A stretch of 64,000 bases of DNA, from positions 4,007 to 68,006 of the forward strand of contig CAVXVG010000005.1 in the NCBI GenBank assembly GCA_963765145.1. Reading direction: 5' to 3'. The DNA is from Parachlamydiales bacterium (GTDB lineage Bacteria > Chlamydiota > Chlamydiia > Chlamydiales > JAJFMK01). Below are positions 1-38,249 of the stretch, piece by piece. The position numbers and the translations under genes were made by a program. A model generated the notes under the pieces. That model was not told the origin of the DNA and searched no databases. It saw only the letters and a list, made by a program, of their open reading frames with translations. Every line of letters starts with the position of its first letter. The first letter of the stretch is position 1.

Positions 1-536
1 GGGATCGCCCTACCTTCATTGTCCCCCTCAACAACGGAAAGTTTTTGCGAAAGGTGGGGGTGAAAGGGATCATTGAACTGGATTGGTGGGAATCGTATGG
101 TCCTGTCACTTTAACCCCTTCCCACCATTGGTCTTCCCGCACCCTTTTTGATCGGTGTAAATCTCTTTGGGGCGGCTTTTTGTTCCAAGAAAAGGGGTGG
201 AAAATCCTCTATGCCGGCGATGGGGGATATGCAAATGACTTCAAGAAGATCTACGAAAAATTTGGCTCACTCGATCTGTCTCTCATCTCGATAGGCTCTT
301 ATGCCCCCCGCTGGTTTATGAAAGAACACCACATGTGCCCGGAAGAGGCTTTGCAAGCACACCTCGACCTCCATTCCAAAAAAAGCATAGCTTACCATTT
401 TGGTACTTTCCAGCTAGCCGACGAGCCCTACCACGAACCTGCCGAGCGTCTGAAAGCCGCCCTGCAAGAGCACGGGTTATCGCCAGACACCTTCCTCGTC
501 CCCGAGCACGGCCAAACCTTCAAGTTCTCCCTTTAG
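1..536 (+). CDS. MBL-fold metallo-hydrolase, C-terminal part (gene enters from left edge)
   Basis: Frame of ORF 45..536 stays open back to nt 3. Sequence (ILYAGDGGY, IAYHFGTFQLADEP) resembles beta-lactamase-fold / NAPE-PLD-like hydrolases. Stop TAG at 534-536. Confidence 0.55.
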   Translation, partial: DRPTFIVPLNNGKFLRKVGVKGIIELDWWESYGPVTLTPSHHWSSRTLFDRCKSLWGGFLFQEKGWKILYAGDGGYANDFKKIYEKFGSLDLSLISIGSYAPRWFMKEHHMCPEEALQAHLDLHSKKSIAYHFGTFQLADEPYHEPAERLKAALQEHGLSPDTFLVPEHGQTFKFSL

Positions 537-553
537 TTACCCTTTTTTTTGGG
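483..553. repeat. Direct repeat DR1, copy a (true 3' end of the MBL-fold gene)
   Basis: ccagacaccttcctcgtccccgagcacggccaaaccttcaagttctccctttagttaccc+T8+ggg recurs at 1392-1462. Confidence 0.9.
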
Positions 554-554
554 G

Positions 555-1322
555 CTATGGGTAACGTTCGTTAAATGCATCGATAGCCGCATTAATAACG
601 CCCGTTCCAAGATCTTTAGAGTCAATAAACTTCTGTTCATTATAAAATAAACCAGACTGAATTTGTGACGCTTTGTGATTAGTTGGTTGAAGAATTACAT
701 TTCTTCTAGGCGTCCTAAATAAACTATAATCAACTTCATCATAAGTGAAAGTGATCGAGTTTTTTTCCGTGACACGGCTCATGATTTCTTTAATTCCTTG
801 AGTTGCTACCAATCGGGCGTCTGAGATAGCTGCGGGGTCAACAAGCTTAACTTGTTCACCCTCTACATACTTGTTAAGAGTACCCAGACACGACGCGTCT
901 AAATTTCTTTTAATAAAATCATCGAATGATCCGAATTCTGTAGCTTTTGGCACAAATTTTAAGAATAAAGCCTGCATAACTTCATCTCGATTATTAAATT
1001 TTGAGGCAATAATATCGAGTTTTTTCAAAAAGACAAAGTTGCTCCCTTGAAGGGTATTAGTTGATCTCTCTGGACTCTGGTAATCTCCCGCCATACCAGT
1101 TTCTATAACGTGCTTATCAGGGTTATATTTGATGTATCCTTCCGAAATCAAGAAAGTGTCAGGCAAGCCTTTAAACTCTCCCACTGCTACTTTGATTTTT
1201 CTTGACGCAGCATCTTTCCCTACAGAATTAACTGTACTTTCCCATGCAGTCTTTAGCTTTTCTTGATTCGTGGGCAATATTGGTCGAGCATAAGAACCAT
1301 CACTAGTTAATGTTAAACTCAT
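555..1322 (-). CDS. Hypothetical protein (255 aa), AT-rich orphan cargo ORF
   Basis: Uninterrupted 255-codon ORF with ATG start. Visibly more AT-rich than its neighbours. I recognise no motif. Lies exactly between the DR1 copies. Confidence 0.5.
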   Translation of the reverse strand: MSLTLTSDGSYARPILPTNQEKLKTAWESTVNSVGKDAASRKIKVAVGEFKGLPDTFLISEGYIKYNPDKHVIETGMAGDYQSPERSTNTLQGSNFVFLKKLDIIASKFNNRDEVMQALFLKFVPKATEFGSFDDFIKRNLDASCLGTLNKYVEGEQVKLVDPAAISDARLVATQGIKEIMSRVTEKNSITFTYDEVDYSLFRTPRRNVILQPTNHKASQIQSGLFYNEQKFIDSKDLGTGVINAAIDAFNERYP

Positions 1323-1391: not shown

Positions 1392-1462
1392 CCAGACACC
1401 TTCCTCGTCCCCGAGCATGGCCAAACCTTCAAGTTTTCCCTTTAGTTACCTTTTTTTTGGGT
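1392..1462. repeat. Direct repeat DR1, copy b
   Basis: Matches 483-553 with two substitutions and a 1-nt length difference. Still encodes PDTFLVPEHGQTFKFSL-stop on the + strand. Confidence 0.9.
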
Positions 1463-1887
1463 TTTGCTTTTTCAGGTGTGGAAAGAAAGACACGATAATC
1501 TGTTTTTAGGACTGTCGCTAATTTTTTTGCCGTTTTTTCACCAACAGGCCTTTTTCCATTTTCCATCTTGGAAATATTGTCTTGTGAAATGTTGGTAAGG
1601 GCGGATAATTCTTTTTGGGAAAGGCTTTCACGAAAGCGCGCTCCTCTTAGTGCCAAACCTGCTTTTGTATGTTTCTCAATACGGTCTTTGGCAACCTCTT
1701 CCCAGGGCTTAGCCTCATCCCATGACTTTCTTGCGTCTTCTAAATGATCTAAAAAGGATTTTAGGCTTTCTTTAGTTGCCTTGTCGTTTGGTACTTGGTA
1801 AAGGATTTGTTTGTTTCCGGGGATCCCAATCGTTATCTGTATAGTACTTTGAGTACTAGTATGGCGCTGCCTCATGTGTCCCGACAT
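1429..1887 (-). CDS. XRE-family helix-turn-helix antitoxin (HigA-like)
   Basis: C-terminal HTH LSQKELSALTNISQDNISKMENGKRPVGEKTAKKLATVL. Overlaps the upstream toxin ORF. The toxin-then-antitoxin order is as in higBA. Real start may be the M at 1875. Confidence 0.7.
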   Translation of the reverse strand: MSGHMRQRHTSTQSTIQITIGIPGNKQILYQVPNDKATKESLKSFLDHLEDARKSWDEAKPWEEVAKDRIEKHTKAGLALRGARFRESLSQKELSALTNISQDNISKMENGKRPVGEKTAKKLATVLKTDYRVFLSTPEKAKPKKKVTKGKT

Positions 1888-2158
1888 AAAAAACCTCTAT
1901 TTCTTTCCGATTGGTACTTACAACTCTCCAGCAAGCAACAAATGTTGGCTTGCCCCGTTTGAGATGGCAATGGTAGGTGTCTTTTGACAGTTTCCCATAG
2001 TGAGGCCATGCAATTCTTTCAGGGCCGCTTATCTCCATCTCAATGATCAAAAAATCTACTAAATCAGTAATGGAAGGTTTTGTCCTGCCATTTTTTTTTA
2101 GTTTTTCATACTGCTTTTCAGCTTTGTTGGATAAACGAATGTGCCAACGTTCGCCCAT
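1856..2158 (-). CDS. RelE/ParE-superfamily (RelE/YafQ-like) toxin
   Basis: About 100 aa from ATG 2156-2158; the track ORF starts at a TTG at 2215. HCHLKRGKPTFVACWRV ... VFYVGTHEAAPY resembles the RelE/YafQ C-terminal pattern. Paired with the XRE antitoxin. Confidence 0.6.
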   Translation of the reverse strand: MGERWHIRLSNKAEKQYEKLKKNGRTKPSITDLVDFLIIEMEISGPERIAWPHYGKLSKDTYHCHLKRGKPTFVACWRVVSTNRKEIEVFYVGTHEAAPY

Positions 2159-2216
2159 TTCAATCTCTTGGGTAGCATACAATTTGACATATGTCAAATT
2201 AATGAGCAAGGCCAAA

Positions 2217-4484
2217 CTACCAGGGAAAGTGGCGGGCGATGCGGTGGAAGAGGGCTTCGAGACAGGAAGTTAGGACAGAAATTTTGCGGAAGAAGAGGGC
2301 GCTCCAAGAAGAAGGCTCCGGTTGAGCCCTATTTTTCCACTGGTGGGCTGTTTTTGCTTGGGTGATCTCAGCAAGTCTTGGCACATCGACTATAGGGCAG
2401 CGGTTTTTCCACAAAGGGGGAATCTCTACATTTTCACGCATCTCTACGACTAAAAAGAGCTTTCCACATTCCACCTTTTCTTCAATGCGATCCAGAAAGA
2501 TCGATCCAAACTTAGTAGCTAATTGAGTGCCTTGAAAGAAAAGAATCAACTGTTCTGCCTTGTCGGTAATCTCTTCGACCACTTCGCTTAATTGAACTTT
2601 CCGGTCTTGAATATCTTGATAAATTTCATTCAGGTCGATGGTTAAAGTGGCTCTAGAAGGAAATTGCTTGAAAACTTGATGGATCAAGGTAGTCTTTCCA
2701 ACGCGTGGTTGGCCGGTGACAAACACTGCAGTGTATTCATCTGAATGCAAAGCTTTTGTAACAACGTTTGTTTCAGTCCGATCGATACTTGTCTTGGTAG
2801 ATGGGGCGATACGCTTGCCATACTTGTGCAAGAGAGAGGCTTGATCGATCAAGGTTAAATGTGGGTCGTTCTTCAATCGTTCAAGTTCAAGTGTGACATC
2901 CTCAGCCGACAACTTTTCTATTTTAGCTAACCTGTTGATGACAACTTCTGGAGTGACTTCTGTGATCCCCTCTCTTGAGGCTCGGTTACAGATAGTATCG
3001 AGGAGCTTATAGGCAGAAGAGGGGAGCCCTTCATGCTTTACGAACTTAAAAGAGAGGTAAACAATGGCTTCCAGAGCTTCGGATGTAATCGAGAAAGGGG
3101 CTTCATGTTTGCAGTAGCTTGCTTCAAGCCGTTTTTTATCAAGCTTGAGCACTTCAAGAGCTAGCTTGGGGGTCATTCTGTCGATTTTTTGAAGCTGAAA
3201 ACGGCGTACAAAGTCGGGAGCTGACTTGACCAAACGTTCAAATTTCAACTCGGTGGTCATAGCGACCATAGGAAAGTTTGCCTCGTCAATGTGGGTCAGT
3301 AAAAGATCGGCAATCGTCGTCTCTTGCGACGAATGACTATCGGAAGTTTGAGAAATTTCATCAAAGACGATCAAAACTTCGTTGGCATGCTTTTTTGCAT
3401 AGTCGACAAGTGTTTGGATCTTTCCTTCCATCATGCCACGATAGGGAGTGTTTGCGAGCAATCTGCTAGTATCTACAAACAAGACCCTTCGTCCTTTCAT
3501 ATTGTCAGGGGCTTTACCTTCATGAATTCTTCGGGCAATTTCTCTGGCGATTTGCGTTTTACCACACCCTGTAGGACCTGTAAGAAGAACAGATGATAAT
3601 TTCTTTCCACCTAAGTCATCAAAAATTGACTGGATCTCTTCCTCTCGGCCATAAGCCGGAGAGATTAGCCCCTTTTCTGCAAGCTCGGTAAGATCGATTG
3701 TAAAGGTTTTGATATCCACTTCGGATTTGCCAGCTTGGGAACCTAGGATCTCTTTAAAAAACGATTCCATCATTCTTTCCGGATGGCGATCAACTTTAGA
3801 CGGTTTTTCTATCCGATACTCGCCTGAAATCGAAGGGAGTTCTTCTTGAGTAAAGGTGCGTGTGGAAAATGCGTTTTTTAAATCTTCATCTAATAAAACA
3901 GCGCTGAATTTTGCACCCTCTTGCAGGGATGTCTCCTCAAAATCGACAAAAACTGTCTTGTCAGTCCCATAAGCTGAGATGATTTGCTCTCGCAAGAAGA
4001 CTTTTTCCTCATTTGGCAAAGAGGGTTCAATAAGAAAAACCCGTTTGGCAATCTCATCCTCTCCTGGTTTTGTGTCAGGCTTTTCATATTTCATCAGGTA
4101 GGCAAGGGTCATGAGTTGATTTTTTGCCTCTTCAAGTCCCAATGATTCAAACGAGGTAATCATCGACGAAACAATCCTCATATTTCGGTAATGATATTGT
4201 AGAAAAAGCTCCCGACCTTTTTCATTTTCAGAAACCATTTCGAATGCTTCGTCTGTCAGGTCACGTACGAGCCCATTATCCATCATCTTTTGTAGAACTT
4301 TTTTGGCGTTCTGATCTGCCTGAGGTAAATAATGGGGCTTTTCTAGGGGTGCAGGCGGCAAAGAGCGGCTGACCCCATTGGTAAATACATGAGGGGGCAG
4401 AATGGGTGCAGTCTTAGTCGGAATGATCTTAAAGTTTGGCCAGGCGGGGATCCAAGAATATAGCTTATTAAGGTTGAATAGCAT
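2217..4484 (-). CDS. Divergent Clp/Hsp100-type AAA+ ATPase with novel N-terminal module and degenerate second P-loop domain
   Basis: Residues about 265-520 align by eye with the D1 domain of the clpC in this window. Shared elements: GREEEIQSIFD..LLTGPTGCGKT (Walker A), YRGMMEGKIQTLV, LIVFDEI (Walker B), FVRRFQ. A second P-loop, VTGQPRVGKTTL, lies near residue 590. Confidence 0.75.
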   Translation of the reverse strand: MLFNLNKLYSWIPAWPNFKIIPTKTAPILPPHVFTNGVSRSLPPAPLEKPHYLPQADQNAKKVLQKMMDNGLVRDLTDEAFEMVSENEKGRELFLQYHYRNMRIVSSMITSFESLGLEEAKNQLMTLAYLMKYEKPDTKPGEDEIAKRVFLIEPSLPNEEKVFLREQIISAYGTDKTVFVDFEETSLQEGAKFSAVLLDEDLKNAFSTRTFTQEELPSISGEYRIEKPSKVDRHPERMMESFFKEILGSQAGKSEVDIKTFTIDLTELAEKGLISPAYGREEEIQSIFDDLGGKKLSSVLLTGPTGCGKTQIAREIARRIHEGKAPDNMKGRRVLFVDTSRLLANTPYRGMMEGKIQTLVDYAKKHANEVLIVFDEISQTSDSHSSQETTIADLLLTHIDEANFPMVAMTTELKFERLVKSAPDFVRRFQLQKIDRMTPKLALEVLKLDKKRLEASYCKHEAPFSITSEALEAIVYLSFKFVKHEGLPSSAYKLLDTICNRASREGITEVTPEVVINRLAKIEKLSAEDVTLELERLKNDPHLTLIDQASLLHKYGKRIAPSTKTSIDRTETNVVTKALHSDEYTAVFVTGQPRVGKTTLIHQVFKQFPSRATLTIDLNEIYQDIQDRKVQLSEVVEEITDKAEQLILFFQGTQLATKFGSIFLDRIEEKVECGKLFLVVEMRENVEIPPLWKNRCPIVDVPRLAEITQAKTAHQWKNRAQPEPSSWSALFFRKISVLTSCLEALFHRIARHFPW

Positions 4485-4491
4485 GGTGATC

Positions 4492-6243
4492 TCAAGTAGT
4501 GCTTAGAAGCTCTTTTCGCTTCTTTTCATCTAAAGCCTTAAAGAAAGCCTTAAATTTTAGATCTTCAGGCAAGCAGATACAGTTAACGTTATTTTTCTCT
4601 CCATAGTTGTTTGTAAAAGTGACAAAAAGTGCCTTTAACTTATAAATAGATCTGATTTCTTCTTTCACAAGAAGAGCTTCGTCTGGCGTTAAGCTGGGGT
4701 GAATCCAGAAAAATCTTCTTGTAAACTCACTCTCTTTTGGTCGATCGGTTTTCATGTAAAATGCAGCAGCTCTGACGGCCTCTTCTGCAGATTTCTTGCC
4801 ACTATTAGGTAGGGCAATGGTGACATTGCCATTACCCATTTTCATTTGGGCAAAAGATTGTTTTTTCCACTGAGAAGAAAAAGCCGCCTCATCAGTAATG
4901 TCACGAATAAGACCCGCCTTTTCGTAGGGGAGGAGTTCTTCGGCTTTTCTTGGCAAATAATCCTTTTTGCTATGAAGCTTGTCTATGTAAGAACGGGCTG
5001 CTTGGCTGAGTGGGGGAGGTGTCGCTTTTTCTTTTTTTCTCACTTCTTGAATAACATAAGAGCCAGGTTCTAAGCTGCAAGCCTTCCATGCATGATCAGA
5101 AGATTCCAAATCTACTTTTTCCCAAGACTCCAGAAGAGCGGCAGTTTTATCTAATGTGAAAATTTGCTTTGTAAGTAACTGTTTGTCAACCCCATTGAGT
5201 CTCTCATGGAGAACATAAATCCGTTTTGCTTTTTCCTCTCCTTTCAGAGGCAATGTTTTCATTAAAAAAGCGACATCATTAATAAGCAATTTTCTTTTAG
5301 AAGATACTGAGCCTCCTGAGGGTGTAAGACTTACAGCGTAATAGTCTTCCATATAGAGGGTAGGTAAATCGCGTGTGTTTTGGCGTAGCGCTTCGACAAT
5401 CTTCTTGGCATCATTGTAGAACTTAGTTCTTTCAGGAGTCGCTTCATTTGCTTCTGTTGTGTCAGTTATTTCGCGAACGAGTCCAAGGCTCAGAAGTGTT
5501 TGCATTTCTGAACTAATGAGAGGTAAAAAGTTCTCTGTAGAAATCGTTTGTTCTCCGTGGTCGACATAATGACCACCGAGGCGAAGAGGGCCATCTGCTT
5601 GCGCTTCCCTCAGCTCTTTCATTCCTGGTAAATGATCGAGTTTTTCTGGAATCGGAGGAAATCTTTCAGCTTCGTCCATCTCTTGTTGCAGTGTTTTTAA
5701 CACCTCATTTCCCTTCTCGGTAATGTAGGCATAAGAAAGCTTTTTTTTAAAACTTTCTGGCAAAATCAGGTAAGTTCCAGAACCTACCCTGTCAAATTTA
5801 TGCTTGTCGGCTGTACACTCAGCAATGCAGGCATATCGGTCGTACACAGATTTAAGCTTCCATCTAACTAACACTTGCTGTTCTTCTGTCAATTTTTCAG
5901 AGAGTATGAAAATTCTTTTAGGAGTCTCGTCTTTCTCAGCAGGCGGTTGAATTTTCATGAGAAGTGCAGTGGTTTTCATGAATGCCGTTACACTGGATGC
6001 ATTGATCTGAACCATCCCTGAAAAAGATCTTATCATGCGTACAGATTGCTGCTGATCAGGAGTTATTAGGTCAGCATGACAGGAACATGTGTAAGCATCT
6101 ACTGTAAGGTCGCGGACCAAGCCGGTAGTGATCAAGTCATAAATTTTTTCATCGAGCTTGGGTAGATAGCTTCTAGAGTTAGATGATTCCAATTTACTTA
6201 AAGCATTGAAAAACGGATTTAATATTGTAGCAAGAAAAGACAT
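4492..6243 (-). CDS. Protein built of three copies of the module found at the N-terminus of the adjacent ATPase
   Basis: The pattern YLP..GL(V/I)R(D/E)(L/I)TD ... (F/L/Y)MK..P...(K/R)R(I/V/F)(F/Y)...L..E...L...I..(Y/L) repeats three times. Ends 7 nt before the ATPase gene start. Confidence 0.6.
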   Translation of the reverse strand: MSFLATILNPFFNALSKLESSNSRSYLPKLDEKIYDLITTGLVRDLTVDAYTCSCHADLITPDQQQSVRMIRSFSGMVQINASSVTAFMKTTALLMKIQPPAEKDETPKRIFILSEKLTEEQQVLVRWKLKSVYDRYACIAECTADKHKFDRVGSGTYLILPESFKKKLSYAYITEKGNEVLKTLQQEMDEAERFPPIPEKLDHLPGMKELREAQADGPLRLGGHYVDHGEQTISTENFLPLISSEMQTLLSLGLVREITDTTEANEATPERTKFYNDAKKIVEALRQNTRDLPTLYMEDYYAVSLTPSGGSVSSKRKLLINDVAFLMKTLPLKGEEKAKRIYVLHERLNGVDKQLLTKQIFTLDKTAALLESWEKVDLESSDHAWKACSLEPGSYVIQEVRKKEKATPPPLSQAARSYIDKLHSKKDYLPRKAEELLPYEKAGLIRDITDEAAFSSQWKKQSFAQMKMGNGNVTIALPNSGKKSAEEAVRAAAFYMKTDRPKESEFTRRFFWIHPSLTPDEALLVKEEIRSIYKLKALFVTFTNNYGEKNNVNCICLPEDLKFKAFFKALDEKKRKELLSTT

Positions 6244-6292
6244 ATATTCTATTTTATAGACATTCTATTTAAAAATAAATTGATTTTTACTT

Positions 6293-6563
6293 CGCAACGC
6301 GTTTGGAGTGCTCGAACTCTTGTTGCGCTTTGACTTTCAAAGAGTGAAAGCGCAACAAGAGTTCGAGCACTCCTGAGTAAGTCTCTTAAAACACAATTCT
6401 CTTAAACTTAAGAAATACTCTCTGTGATCTCTCGAGTCCTCTGTGGTTGAAATATCTTTAAATTTTTATAACCACAGAGGACTCGAGAGATCACAGAGAG
6501 TATGAAAACTTACTTCATGATCTTAGGGACGGCAGTCTCTTCCTTGCTCCAAACGCTAGCGCG
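6293..6563. repeat. Composite palindromic repeat, family G (termini CGCnAnGCGTTTGGAG / CTCCAAACGCnnGCG)
   Basis: Contains hairpin gtgctcgaactcttgttgcgc...gcgcaacaagagttcgagcac and the cacagag hairpin at 6418-6500. Related copies at 24390-24944, 29049-29471 and 52029-52696. Confidence 0.85.
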
Positions 6564-6573
6564 TGGGGTGGGG

Positions 6574-7533
6574 TTACCACACAGGGATGATGCCGGTGAG
6601 GTTGTTGCGGTCCCATTGAGTGTGGATGGATGCTTGAGGATCATACTCCAGTTGGCCGTTCATCTGGTTGTACACCATGAGATTGCGCTCATCATATCGG
6701 TCGAGGAAAATATTGGTTTGAGAAGTGTGCACATCAAACCCCGGCTTTGCGACGATTGTTGTTCGCTTGCTGCCATCTTCCAGCTTTTCTTCAATCGTTT
6801 CGTAACGAGTGGTAGGCATCAAATTCCAGTGAGATTTTGTATCGAGTAATTCTCGTCTGAAGACAAGGGTCTGGCCTACGAGAGATCTATCGCCCATCTG
6901 ATCAAAGATCAGGGTTGCTACACTGAATTGATTCAAGCGAAGAGCTAAAAGAAAAGGGGTTGCTTCGATGAATCGTTGCGGTTGGAGAGATCTTTCCGGC
7001 AGACGAGGGGCAAAATGCTTTGTAAAGAAAAATTCACCTGTGTCTTCGTTGAGCCACGCATGGGTGTTGAGCTCTGCCCCTTGGCGGATCTTCTTTTCTG
7101 CAAGAGAGGGATTGTCGGTAGCGATCGCTTTAAATAGTTCTTTTGAAAGGATGTCCTTTGTGTATTGGCTGATGTTGCCTCTCATGAACCGTTTTTCGCC
7201 ATATAAAGGGAGCACTCTAAACTGATAGCTAGAGAGATCTTTGTAGCTCAGCTCTTGAAGGGAACGGAAGTCATCGGCCTGATTTTTGAGCATGAACTCA
7301 CGGACGCTATTGATGTTGGCATAGACCTTTTCGCCATTCACTGTGATGGTGACAGCTTTGCCAAGGATGTAAGCGCCGGCTTGTGTTAGTGCATTATTAT
7401 AGGTGTCGATGCTACCTGCGTAGTCGCCATTGATCGCAAAATGGGTTCTACCCCCATCTACAACTGTATCGATAAGTTCAGCTTTTTCGATTCTCATTTG
7501 AAAGTCCTTTTTTTTAGAAGTCAACATTCTCAC
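6574..7533 (-). CDS. Hypothetical protein, possibly with two ankyrin-like repeats
   Basis: ELFKAIATDNPSLAEKKIRQGAELN and ATPFLLALRLNQFSVATLIFDQMGD resemble the ankyrin consensus (TPLhlA...LL..GAD). Lies 17 nt downstream of mfd on the same strand. Confidence 0.45.
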   Translation of the reverse strand: MRMLTSKKKDFQMRIEKAELIDTVVDGGRTHFAINGDYAGSIDTYNNALTQAGAYILGKAVTITVNGEKVYANINSVREFMLKNQADDFRSLQELSYKDLSSYQFRVLPLYGEKRFMRGNISQYTKDILSKELFKAIATDNPSLAEKKIRQGAELNTHAWLNEDTGEFFFTKHFAPRLPERSLQPQRFIEATPFLLALRLNQFSVATLIFDQMGDRSLVGQTLVFRRELLDTKSHWNLMPTTRYETIEEKLEDGSKRTTIVAKPGFDVHTSQTNIFLDRYDERNLMVYNQMNGQLEYDPQASIHTQWDRNNLTGIIPVW

Positions 7534-24389: not shown

Positions 24390-24944
24390 CGCGAAGCGTT
24401 TGGAGTTGTTGCATAATTCCTTGTAATGTTTCGTCTCTCCTGCAGCCCTTCAGGCTGCCATATAAATTTTCGTCCTGGACCCGGGGCGTTGCCCACGGGC
24501 TGTTGCAGTTTTGGCCTTTCAGGCCAAGGGAAAAGCATATATTGCGAAGGTTTTCCGGCTGAAAGCCGGATAGTTGCAACAGCCCGCGGGCAACGCCCCG
24601 GGTTAAGTTGGAAAATAAAATTGGCAGCCTGTAAGGTTGCAGGAATAAAGAAGCGCAGTGAACAATTATGCAACAAGGCCGTGCTCCTGAGCCTGTTTAG
24701 CTTTGACTTATCAGTAAAAGTGAAAGCTAAACAAGAGTTTAGCACTCCTGAGTAAGCGCTCTCAACAACAAAGGATTTCAATTTAGCAAAGCATCTCCGT
24801 GTTCTCTGTGCCTCTGTGTTTAAAACTTTTTAAAAAATTAAAACACAGAGACACAGAGATAACAGAGGAAGATAGAAAGAGAAATACATTCTTACTTCAG
24901 GATCCGAGGGACGAGAGTCTCTTCCTTGCTCCAAACGCTTCGCG
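24390..24944. repeat. Composite family G repeat carrying one nested family D palindrome
   Basis: Termini cgcgaagcgtttggag / ctccaaacgcttcgcg. D element (ctgcagcccttcaggctgcc...) inserted at ttgttgcataatt/aattatgcaacaa. Also contains a cacagag hairpin at about 24795-24880. Confidence 0.85.
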
Positions 24945-29048: not shown

Positions 29049-29471
29049 CGCAACGCGTTTGGAGTGCTAAACGGCCTTGTTGCATAATTCAATTTCTAAT
29101 TAAAAAATGTAGCTCCAGGCTTTAGAAGTACTTGCAAAAATCGGATTGTTGGCTTTTTTTTAGAAACAGGTCCGAAGACCGAAATATGAAAGCCCAGCGC
29201 CGAAGGCCTGGGTTACAAATGTGAAATAAAATTGGAGTCCTGAAAGGACGGCATAAAATATCTCCTGTAGTGTTTGTGGAACAGGATATGTCGTCCCTTC
29301 AGGACTCCAATTTCTATTGGCATACTTACCCTGGCCTTCGACCAGGGCTTTCATATTTCGGCCCTTCGGGCCTGTTTCTGAGCTTAATCTGATTTTTGCA
29401 AGTGCCTCTAAAGTCTAAGCTACAATATTTGTCCAAATTAAGATTAATTATGCGCTCCAAACGCTAGCGCG
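29049..29471. repeat. Family G palindrome split by a nested family E element
   Basis: Reads cgcaacgcgtttggagtgc...ttgttgcataatt [E] aattatgcgctccaaacgctagcgcg. Confidence 0.8.
29108..29424. mobile_element. MITE-like 317-bp palindromic element, family E, copy 1
   Basis: Terminal inverted repeats tgtagct..ctttagaagtacttgcaaaaatc.gatt / aatc.gatttttgcaagt.cctctaaag.ctaagctaca, with long internal symmetry. No credible coding capacity. Confidence 0.85.
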
Positions 29472-37932: not shown

Positions 37933-38249
37933 TGTAGCTTAGACTAAAGAGCCACTTGCAAAAATCAGATTAAGCTCAGAAACAGGCCCGAAGGGCCGAA
38001 ATATGAAAGCCCTGGTCGAAGGCCAGGGTAAGTATGCCAATAGAAATTGGAGTCCTGAAGGGACGACATATCCTGTTCCACAAACACTACAGGAGATATT
38101 TTATGCCGTCCTTTCAGGACTCCAATTTTATTTCACATTTGTAACCCAGGCCTTCGGCGCTGGGCTTTCATATTTCGGTCCTTCGGACCTGTTTCTAAAA
38201 AAAAGCCAACAATCCGATTTTTGCAAGTACTTCTAAAGTCTAAGCTACA
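37933..38249. mobile_element. MITE-like 317-bp palindromic element, family E, copy 2 (inverted relative to copy 1)
   Basis: Reverse complement of 29108-29424 with only a few mismatches by eye. Confidence 0.85.

Follow-up and report, generated by a model that had tools for sequence, protein, structure and literature searches.

What is the N-terminal module of an unusual Clp/Hsp100-like ATPase, and what is the role of a neighboring protein that consists of three copies of the same module? These questions are raised by a locus in a 64,000-nt stretch of DNA from a Parachlamydiales bacterium (GenBank assembly GCA_963765145.1, contig CAVXVG010000005.1), which we refer to as the window. The 755-residue ATPase is encoded by gene A (2217..4484) and the 583-residue module protein by gene B (4492..6243), both on the minus strand, as are all domains of the two genes located below. 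The first-pass annotation of this DNA, made from the sequence alone, had placed the 583-residue gene 7 nt upstream of the ATPase gene; the coordinates of the open reading frames (ORFs) agree with that spacing and supply the strand, which had been left unstated. Our findings suggest that the module very probably arose by degeneration of the first of the Clp D1-type AAA+ domains that a small family of ATPases carries in tandem, with B predicted to comprise three such modules in tandem and A to be an AAA+ ATPase of three D1-derived tiers. On balance, we favor an explanation in which a multi-D1 ATPase is co-inherited with a partner made of three dead copies of its own N-terminal tier, a partner that likely binds it.

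Architecture of ATPase A and its relatives

The catalytic core of A resembles that of the Clp proteins. Pfam recognizes AAA (PF00004) at residues 299-412 (E-value 2e-19) and AAA_lid_9 at residues 454-533 (3e-6), NCBIfam matches point to ClpA (8e-35) and ClpV1 (1e-34), and the PDB match, to the D1 domain of ClpB (3e-28), spans residues 256-502 only. Compared with the product of the window's own clpC, A is 28% identical (2e-23), and these results together bear out the earlier remark that the 755-residue protein has a Clp D1-type core like that of ClpC. A nevertheless falls below every NCBIfam equivalog cut-off, scoring 120.2 bits versus 993 for ClpA, 119.8 versus 885 for ClpV1, and 96.5 versus 1232 for ClpB. 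In the motif alignment, GREEE, GPTGCGKT, PYRG, VFDEIS, and VRRFQ were all found in A. The large subdomain of its active D1 (residues 259-450; 3135..3710) carries an intact Walker A (GPTGCGKT), Walker B (VFDE), sensor 1 (MTT), and arginine fingers (RRF, within RRFQ), all of which are also intact in the orthologs, and is followed by the lid, or small subdomain (residues 451-540; 2865..3134), to which AAA_lid_9 corresponds. The pore-loop tyrosine of PYRG is not kept in the orthologs, which have ILHG (P0006) or PNRG (P0007) instead; the D1 of ClpV likewise lacks it in the same alignment, and the residue would be dispensable in both.

Beyond the lid, residues ~570-700 (2385..2777) align with the third D1 of P0008, a 966-residue relative with three D1-type domains. 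This part of A has an intact Walker A (GQPRVGKT), QG in place of DE at Walker B, a degenerate sensor 1, and no arginine fingers; Pfam reports P-loop matches of the AAA_14 and NB-ARC types within it. It also shows the lowest ratio of non-synonymous to synonymous substitution rates (omega) in the protein, 0.12. A degenerate second P-loop, GQPRVGKTT, had been proposed here: the domain is indeed degenerate in its Walker B, sensor 1, and arginine fingers, while its Walker A itself is a canonical GxxxxGKT. Judged by these motifs, the third domain is a decayed D1 that would bind nucleotide at most. The protein ends in an amphipathic, Trp/Phe-rich tail of ~34 residues (2220..2321) whose hydrophobicity is too low for a transmembrane segment, and no such segment was found anywhere in A.

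Several hallmarks of the Clp/Hsp100 proteins are missing from A. Pfam finds no Clp_N (PF02861) in A or its orthologs, in contrast to nearly all ClpV/ClpB matches, and the first ~215 residues of A are therefore not a Clp_N region, as the first-pass annotation had stated. The D2 model AAA_2 (PF07724) reaches 20.9 bits, under its cut-off of 27, and is placed over D1 residues 295-381; the ClpB_D2-small lid (PF10431) is absent; and the IG(F/L) loop that docks ClpP is lacking, the sole match to [ILMV]G[FLM] being SLGLEE within the N-terminal module. A thus shares with the class I Clp/Hsp100 proteins (ClpA/ClpB/ClpC/ClpV) a D1 with the 'DLTxxA..G..P.yGRe.E' lead, the Walker motifs, sensor 1, RRFQ, and AAA_lid_9. 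It differs from them in having no D2, Clp_N, M-domain, or ClpP-docking loop, and in that its flanking domains appear to be extra copies of D1, each decayed differently. The predicted order is a dead D1, an active D1 with its lid, and a D1 remnant that may bind nucleotide at most, and by its motifs only the middle domain retains the full set of catalytic residues.

Its domain content places A in a small family of ATPases, as yet without a name, that derive from Clp/Hsp100 and consist solely of two or three tandem D1-type domains. A search with P0008 yielded the other members, P0127, P0128, P0129, and P0130, all of them, like P0008, metagenomic proteins; P0127 and P0008 contain three intact D1-type domains. 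These relatives resemble A in their collinear D1-lid-D1 arrangement, in an N-terminal lead of the form (S/Y)(F/Y)LPK..GLI(K/R)DIT, and in an amphipathic C-terminal tail similar to that of A. Residues 261-754 of A are collinear with residues 350-872 of P0008, comprising its second D1, lid, and third D1 (E-value 3e-41), and the N-terminal module of A therefore occupies the position of the first D1 (D1a). In this first domain, Walker A and Walker B are kept in P0127, P0128, and P0008, whereas in A both are fully degenerate and the lid has been lost.

Some members of the family have features of their own. P0129 (residues 1-230) and P0130 (residues 1-125) begin with long low-complexity extensions rich in Pro, Ala, Ser, and Thr, and have two D1-type domains each, the first of which contains a P-loop, 'AKPG(S/M)GKT', that departs from the GxxxxGK[ST] pattern. 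Upstream of P0008, at a distance of 24 nt, lies the gene for a protein that exceeds 3,606 residues and carries DUF3638 (L003, 1-9977). DUF3638 is a mainly eukaryotic domain; a literature search on it returned nothing useful.

Identity of the repeated module

The recurrence of the N-terminal region of A three times in B, claimed earlier from short sequence anchors, is confirmed by blastp and by profile comparison. Residues 1-260 of A match B at 444-563 (6e-12), 26-134 (8e-10), and 247-368 (8e-4), and profiles built from one class of module recover the others, for instance A to B3 (1e-11), B1 to A (1e-8), and B1 to B3 (1.5e-8). The repeats are accordingly supported by profile self-comparison, most weakly for B2, the most divergent module, whose cross-profile E-values range from 1e-3 to 2e-2 and derive chiefly from the A.LMK..KR.F segment. 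A hidden Markov model (HMM) of the module delimits the copy in A at residues 51-216 (3837..4334) and those in B at residues 25-180 (module 1; 5704..6171), 238-408 (module 2; 5020..5532), and 428-583 (module 3; 4495..4962). The E-value for module 1, 3.9e-63, is self-inclusive; among separate comparisons, A to B1 gives 2e-4, B3 to B1 5e-6, A to B3 2e-9, and B3 to A 1e-11. Eight residues are invariant over the 13 aligned copies. The modules of B have no lids and are connected by fast-evolving linkers, and no family match was obtained for B or the module in Pfam (14 module sequences), NCBIfam, PADLOC, or PHROG.

Although the module was initially taken to be novel and unrecognized, it can be linked to the Clp D1 domain through the multi-D1 family, which means that it does match, in part, an already characterized domain. 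The module HMM aligns with residues 23-144 of P0127 (30.8 bits, E-value 1.4e-11 for that comparison), a D1 domain with intact Walker A that the Clp D1 HMM covers over the same stretch (6e-25). The matched segment, 'SFLPKIKPSINYLITTGLIKDITEE...GRAKDIKWIANRM..NGALIVGSAGVGKTLIIYHIAYLITRNQAPLGLKNKRIFLIQ...CILVSDEAH', is in register at GSAGVGKT, at the segment from helix alpha1 to strand beta2, and at the Walker B strand. In other words, P0127 presents the lead of the module fused to an intact D1, with the GKKS position of the module aligned with Walker A and its strand beta3 with the Walker B strand. Similarly, an hhalign comparison of the module alignment with the first D1 domains of the five relatives (P0127, P0128, P0008, P0129, and P0130) gives a probability of 94.8% (E-value 5e-8), with the register kept up to and including the Walker B strand.

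The two sequence anchors by which the module was first noticed can be read in the same terms. The first, GLVRDLTDEA, corresponds to the 'DLTxxA' motif that precedes D1 in Clp proteins, and the second, A.LMK..P...KRvF.l, to helix alpha1 and strand beta2, the segment after the P-loop, where by eye it resembles 'A.GLA.RI..g.VP..LkgkRv..lD' of D1. AlphaFold2 models of the A module and of B module 3 are of moderate quality (predicted local distance difference test, pLDDT, 66 and 72.5), and in both the order of elements fits beta1-alpha1-beta2-alpha2-beta3-beta4, with helix alpha3 missing. The residues required for nucleotide binding have been lost. At the Walker A position, the modules read SLGLEEAK (A), NASSVT (B1), SVSSKRK (B2), and NSGKKS (B3), the last with a Walker-A remnant, SGKKS, and the Walker B strand is without DE except for a 'DFEE' remnant in A. 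The modules would therefore represent pseudo-ATPase domains, devoid of nucleotide-binding motifs.

When a simple tree is drawn, all four classes of module group in a single clade that excludes the intact D1a domains, and the A module is placed next to B3, from which it follows that the motifs were lost first and that the module was then copied to make B. One small family would thus record the stepwise decay of an AAA+ protein, from three live D1 domains, through live and partly dead ones, to a tier that is wholly dead and, as the last stage, a protein of its own made only of dead domains. This assignment also removes a false lead. The first-pass annotation had argued from the role of Clp N-domains as docking sites, and this argument loses its basis because the module appears to be a degenerate D1-type AAA+ domain and not a novel N-domain; no new adaptor-docking fold is indicated. 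The relevant precedents would instead be inactive AAA+ tiers and partners.

Pairing of A and B and readings of their role

B and A are adjacent in all five loci in which either gene was found, namely the window and L001, L002, L004, and L009, which come from close Parachlamydiales relatives; the two genes are therefore co-located beyond the genome in which they were first noticed. A search of 5.8 billion clustered proteins yielded three relatives of B, with orthologs at 72-76% identity in L001/L002, L004, and L009, and the orthologs of A are 78% identical in L004, 81-84% in L009, where two frameshifts interrupt the gene, and partial in L001/L002. Among 1.84 billion representatives, the module profile recovered only the A and B families, plus two marginal matches, the eukaryotic proteins P0125 and P0126. 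These two match only at 'LESIGLVDDIT' inside an unrelated repeat and were dismissed as spurious. No relative was found with B as a single query against the GTDB species genomes, and a metagenome scan with the B alignment added only L009, whose DNA shares 85% identity with the window. In the Parachlamydiales metagenome-assembled genome (MAG) OY969899.1 (L005), whose Mfd is 81% identical to that of the window, a homolog of the neighboring 319-residue orphan (o319) was found, but neither A nor B within 10 kb of mfd. With the pair known from five closely related metagenomic loci, the practical reach of these findings is limited.

Both genes are maintained under relaxed purifying selection and evolve fast, as follows from their omega values. 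These are 0.28 for A and 0.27-0.43 for B, compared with 0.07-0.10 for the neighboring o319. Within B, modules 1 and 3 are the more constrained (0.22-0.33; B1 0.23-0.33, B3 about 0.22), and module 2 reaches 0.56-0.65; the linkers of the two proteins (A 217-258, B 186-244) lie at 0.6-1.1, close to neutral in the comparison of the window with L004.

Under the explanation that we favor, A most likely assembles as a ring through its active D1, since the arginine fingers, which act in trans between subunits, are conserved. Such a ring would have three stacked layers, one dead, one active, and one that binds nucleotide. It would work without ClpP, because there is neither a D2 nor an IGF/L docking loop, and it may remodel or disassemble a bound partner or client instead of threading it processively, given that the pore-loop tyrosine is not conserved, as in the D1 of ClpV. 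The modules of B are paralogs of the N-tier of A, and the most plausible route by which B would bind A is the same kind of AAA-type contact between domains. With three modules per chain, a pair of B chains would add up to the six of a full ring and could cap, extend, or interleave with the N-tier of A; in this way, B could control the assembly or activity of A or serve as a platform for clients.

Degenerate AAA+ domains retained as structural or regulatory parts of rings are known from the D1 of Pex1/Pex6, the D2 of NSF, and the delta and delta-prime subunits of the clamp loader. In those systems, unlike B, the dead domains belong to the same chain as the live ones or to a fixed hetero-oligomer of single-domain subunits, and among the families compared we found no other separate protein composed of three tandem dead AAA+ domains. 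The pair could offer the AAA+ field a natural test case of inactive domains set free as a separate, multivalent partner. Functionally, the closest precedent is Torsin with LAP1/LULL1, in which, as proposed for B and A, a dead AAA+-fold protein is paired with an active AAA+ ATPase; the AAA+ fold of LAP1 is atypical and lacks nucleotide-binding motifs (PMC4358337). The two systems differ in that LAP1 contributes a strictly conserved arginine finger, whereas none is seen in the modules, where the alignment is unreliable at that position, and in that B has three dead domains per chain while the ATPase A also carries one.

Several observations weigh against the favored explanation. Regarding the pairing, the interaction of A with B is suggested by paralogy and adjacency only. 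P0127, P0128, and P0008 stand alone with no B-like neighbor, whereas A has B, and the cases of P0127 and P0128 imply that the ATPase family needs no such partner. Two frameshifts, near residues 80 and 621, break the A ortholog of L009 (2038-4273) into three ORFs, with an intact B upstream; this reflects either an assembly error, or recent pseudogenization or dispensability of A. The absence of a conserved arginine at the arginine-finger position of the modules, in a poorly aligned region, gives no indication of a LAP1-style activator role; their only invariant arginine is that of the KR before strand beta2. Regarding the origin of the module, the link to D1 is significant only by way of P0127-type intermediates, of which there are five, with the 28-residue lead contributing a large part of the score. 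When a generic Clp D1 profile is used instead, the hhalign E-value is 0.33, the best alignment already being in the register that was later confirmed; a generic D1 HMM scores the modules no better than shuffled sequences; and the module profile finds only chance matches among PDB sequences (E-values of at least 0.55). Foldseek returned nothing significant with either AlphaFold2 model, the best E-values being 0.03-0.15 with no value below 0.02, and for B module 3 the top matches by E-value are unrelated folds. The PDB structures best matched by template modeling (TM) score are the D1 domains of ClpC and ClpA, at 0.37-0.42 and never above 0.42.

A tentative alternative, compatible with the favored explanation, is that A and B act not in the bacterium's own proteostasis but as type III-secreted effectors in an amoebal or other eukaryotic host. 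Consistent with it, the pair is confined to one lineage of obligate intracellular Parachlamydiales, the omega values of A and B are 3-5 times that of o319, and the region around the genes is variable, with indels and repeat elements. The N-termini of A and B are uncharged, hydrophobic, and Ser/Asn-rich, and the amphipathic C-terminal tail is family-wide; the low-complexity extensions of P0129 and P0130 and the position of P0008 beside a giant protein with the eukaryote-type DUF3638 domain point in the same direction. However, no chaperone or type III secretion system gene is adjacent, and N-terminal composition is a weak criterion. For chlamydial biology, a fast-evolving, lineage-specific pair in a variable region makes a candidate host-interaction factor. 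A bolder combination, which we consider rather unlikely as a whole, would have B as a pseudo-AAA+ partner in the manner of LAP1 for Torsin, two chains forming or completing a silent ring on A, with the pair exported by type III secretion to remodel a host complex.

It is less probable still that the module is an independent alpha/beta domain that shares with the multi-D1 family only the lead of ~28 residues (YLPK..GLIRDLT), the single point on which the D1 assignment retains some doubt. When the hhalign comparison is split, the lead alone yields 2.6e-8 and the AAA core alone a P value of 0.003, so most of the score does belong to the lead; the outcomes of the generic D1, PDB, and Foldseek searches, as well as the empty Pfam result for all 14 module sequences, would also suit such a domain. 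Nevertheless, the core alone aligns in the predicted register, with strand beta1, the P-loop position, helix alpha1 ('A.L(M/I)(K/T)..P'), and 'KRiF.l' all in place, and its spacing and secondary-structure order fit D1. B3 retains 'GKKS' at the Walker A position, and the C-terminal domain of A provides a provable second case of D1 decay in the same protein.

We regard as very improbable the reading of B as a non-functional remnant of duplicated ATPase domains, kept by chance beside A. The protein is devoid of any catalytic motif, module 2 and the linkers evolve fast (omega 0.56-1.1), and the distribution is extremely narrow, all of which a remnant would explain. Yet a B ORF of 575-583 residues remains intact in five loci at a synonymous divergence (dS) of 0.37-0.71, and the low omega of modules 1 and 3, together with the eight residues invariant in all 13 copies, speaks for retained constraint.

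Neighboring genes and repeat elements

Three minus-strand genes follow A. A 119-residue ORF (1856..2215) begins after a gap of 1 nt, a 152-residue helix-turn-helix (HTH) protein (1429..1887) overlaps it by 32 nt, and a 255-residue orphan (o255, 555..1322) comes 106 nt after the HTH gene. The 119-residue ORF matches phrog_32175, of unknown function, at residues 25-119 (1.5e-15), and Pfam YafQ with an E-value of only 0.04; because the PHROG match covers that range, translation most likely starts at an internal Met, giving a product of ~99-119 residues. The 152-residue protein contains an XRE-type HTH_3 domain (Pfam, 5e-10). In its toxin-first order and overlapping HTH gene, the pair at 1429-2215 resembles a type II toxin-antitoxin system (HigBA-like), while the likeness of the first protein to RelE/YafQ is weak.

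The first-pass annotation had described a same-strand string of five genes, and the spacings it gave (7 nt, 1 nt, an overlap, and 106 nt) are correct, but the unit is not kept in L009 or L004. In L009, palindromic repeat elements come after A and are themselves followed immediately by a homolog of window positions 124-537, with neither toxin-antitoxin pair nor orphan; in L004, a repeat element lies immediately 3' of A and the toxin-antitoxin pair is absent. A 70-nt direct repeat (483-552 and 1392-1461, 94% identical) flanks o255, one copy being the 3' end of a plus-strand gene (45-536). In L009 there is a single copy and the orphan is missing, so that o255 has the appearance of an insertion whose flank was duplicated. 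Both o255 and the toxin-antitoxin pair are strain-specific insertions outside the B-A unit. We give hardly any credence, therefore, to a single functional cassette of B, A, toxin, antitoxin, and orphan, such as a defense or addiction system using the ATPase: the tight spacing and a terminator-like hairpin found only after the antitoxin gene (1386-1400) would suit it, but the absences in L009 and L004, the insertion signature around the orphan, and the PADLOC result, with generic P-loop matches for A and nothing for B, do not. A defense-system reading was likewise rejected, as PADLOC gave no specific match.

Upstream of B, a promoter-like site (TTTAAA-16-TAGAAT, 6246..6273, minus strand) lies directly 5' of the start codon. 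Such sites are no more numerous here than in shuffled sequences, and this one is suggestive by its position alone. Between o319 and B there are two long palindromes (31-nt and 34-nt arms; 6305-6373 and 6415-6503, without strand), probably repeat elements or terminators that divide the transcription units of o319 and B. Copies of the element at 6305-6373 sit immediately 3' of A in L004 and L009. The same family of long palindromic intergenic repeats also occurs at 24694-24737, 29162-29408, and 37949-38196. Two matches to the Rfam family 'Acido-Lenti-1' (29329-29373, plus strand; 37984-38028, minus strand) reach 37.6 bits, the gathering score being 37; since they fall inside these palindromic repeats, they may represent repeat elements and not small RNA genes.

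The 319-residue orphan o319 (6574-7533) belongs to no Pfam, NCBIfam, PADLOC, or PHROG family, and purifying selection on it is strong. Its identity is about 90% in the sister contigs and 67% in L005 (18649-19590), the MAG with neither A nor B nearby. In one sister lineage, represented by L001 (4910-8103, minus strand) and, with the same genes, by L002, an extra gene pair lies between mfd and o319. Its first member encodes a protein of 512 residues in which a lysine-rich coiled-coil repeat is accompanied by hydrophobic segments, and its second a 571-residue protein whose sole recognized domain is a Clp D2-type AAA_2 preceded by an unassigned N-terminal region. This variable region thus contains a further orphan ATPase derived from Clp.

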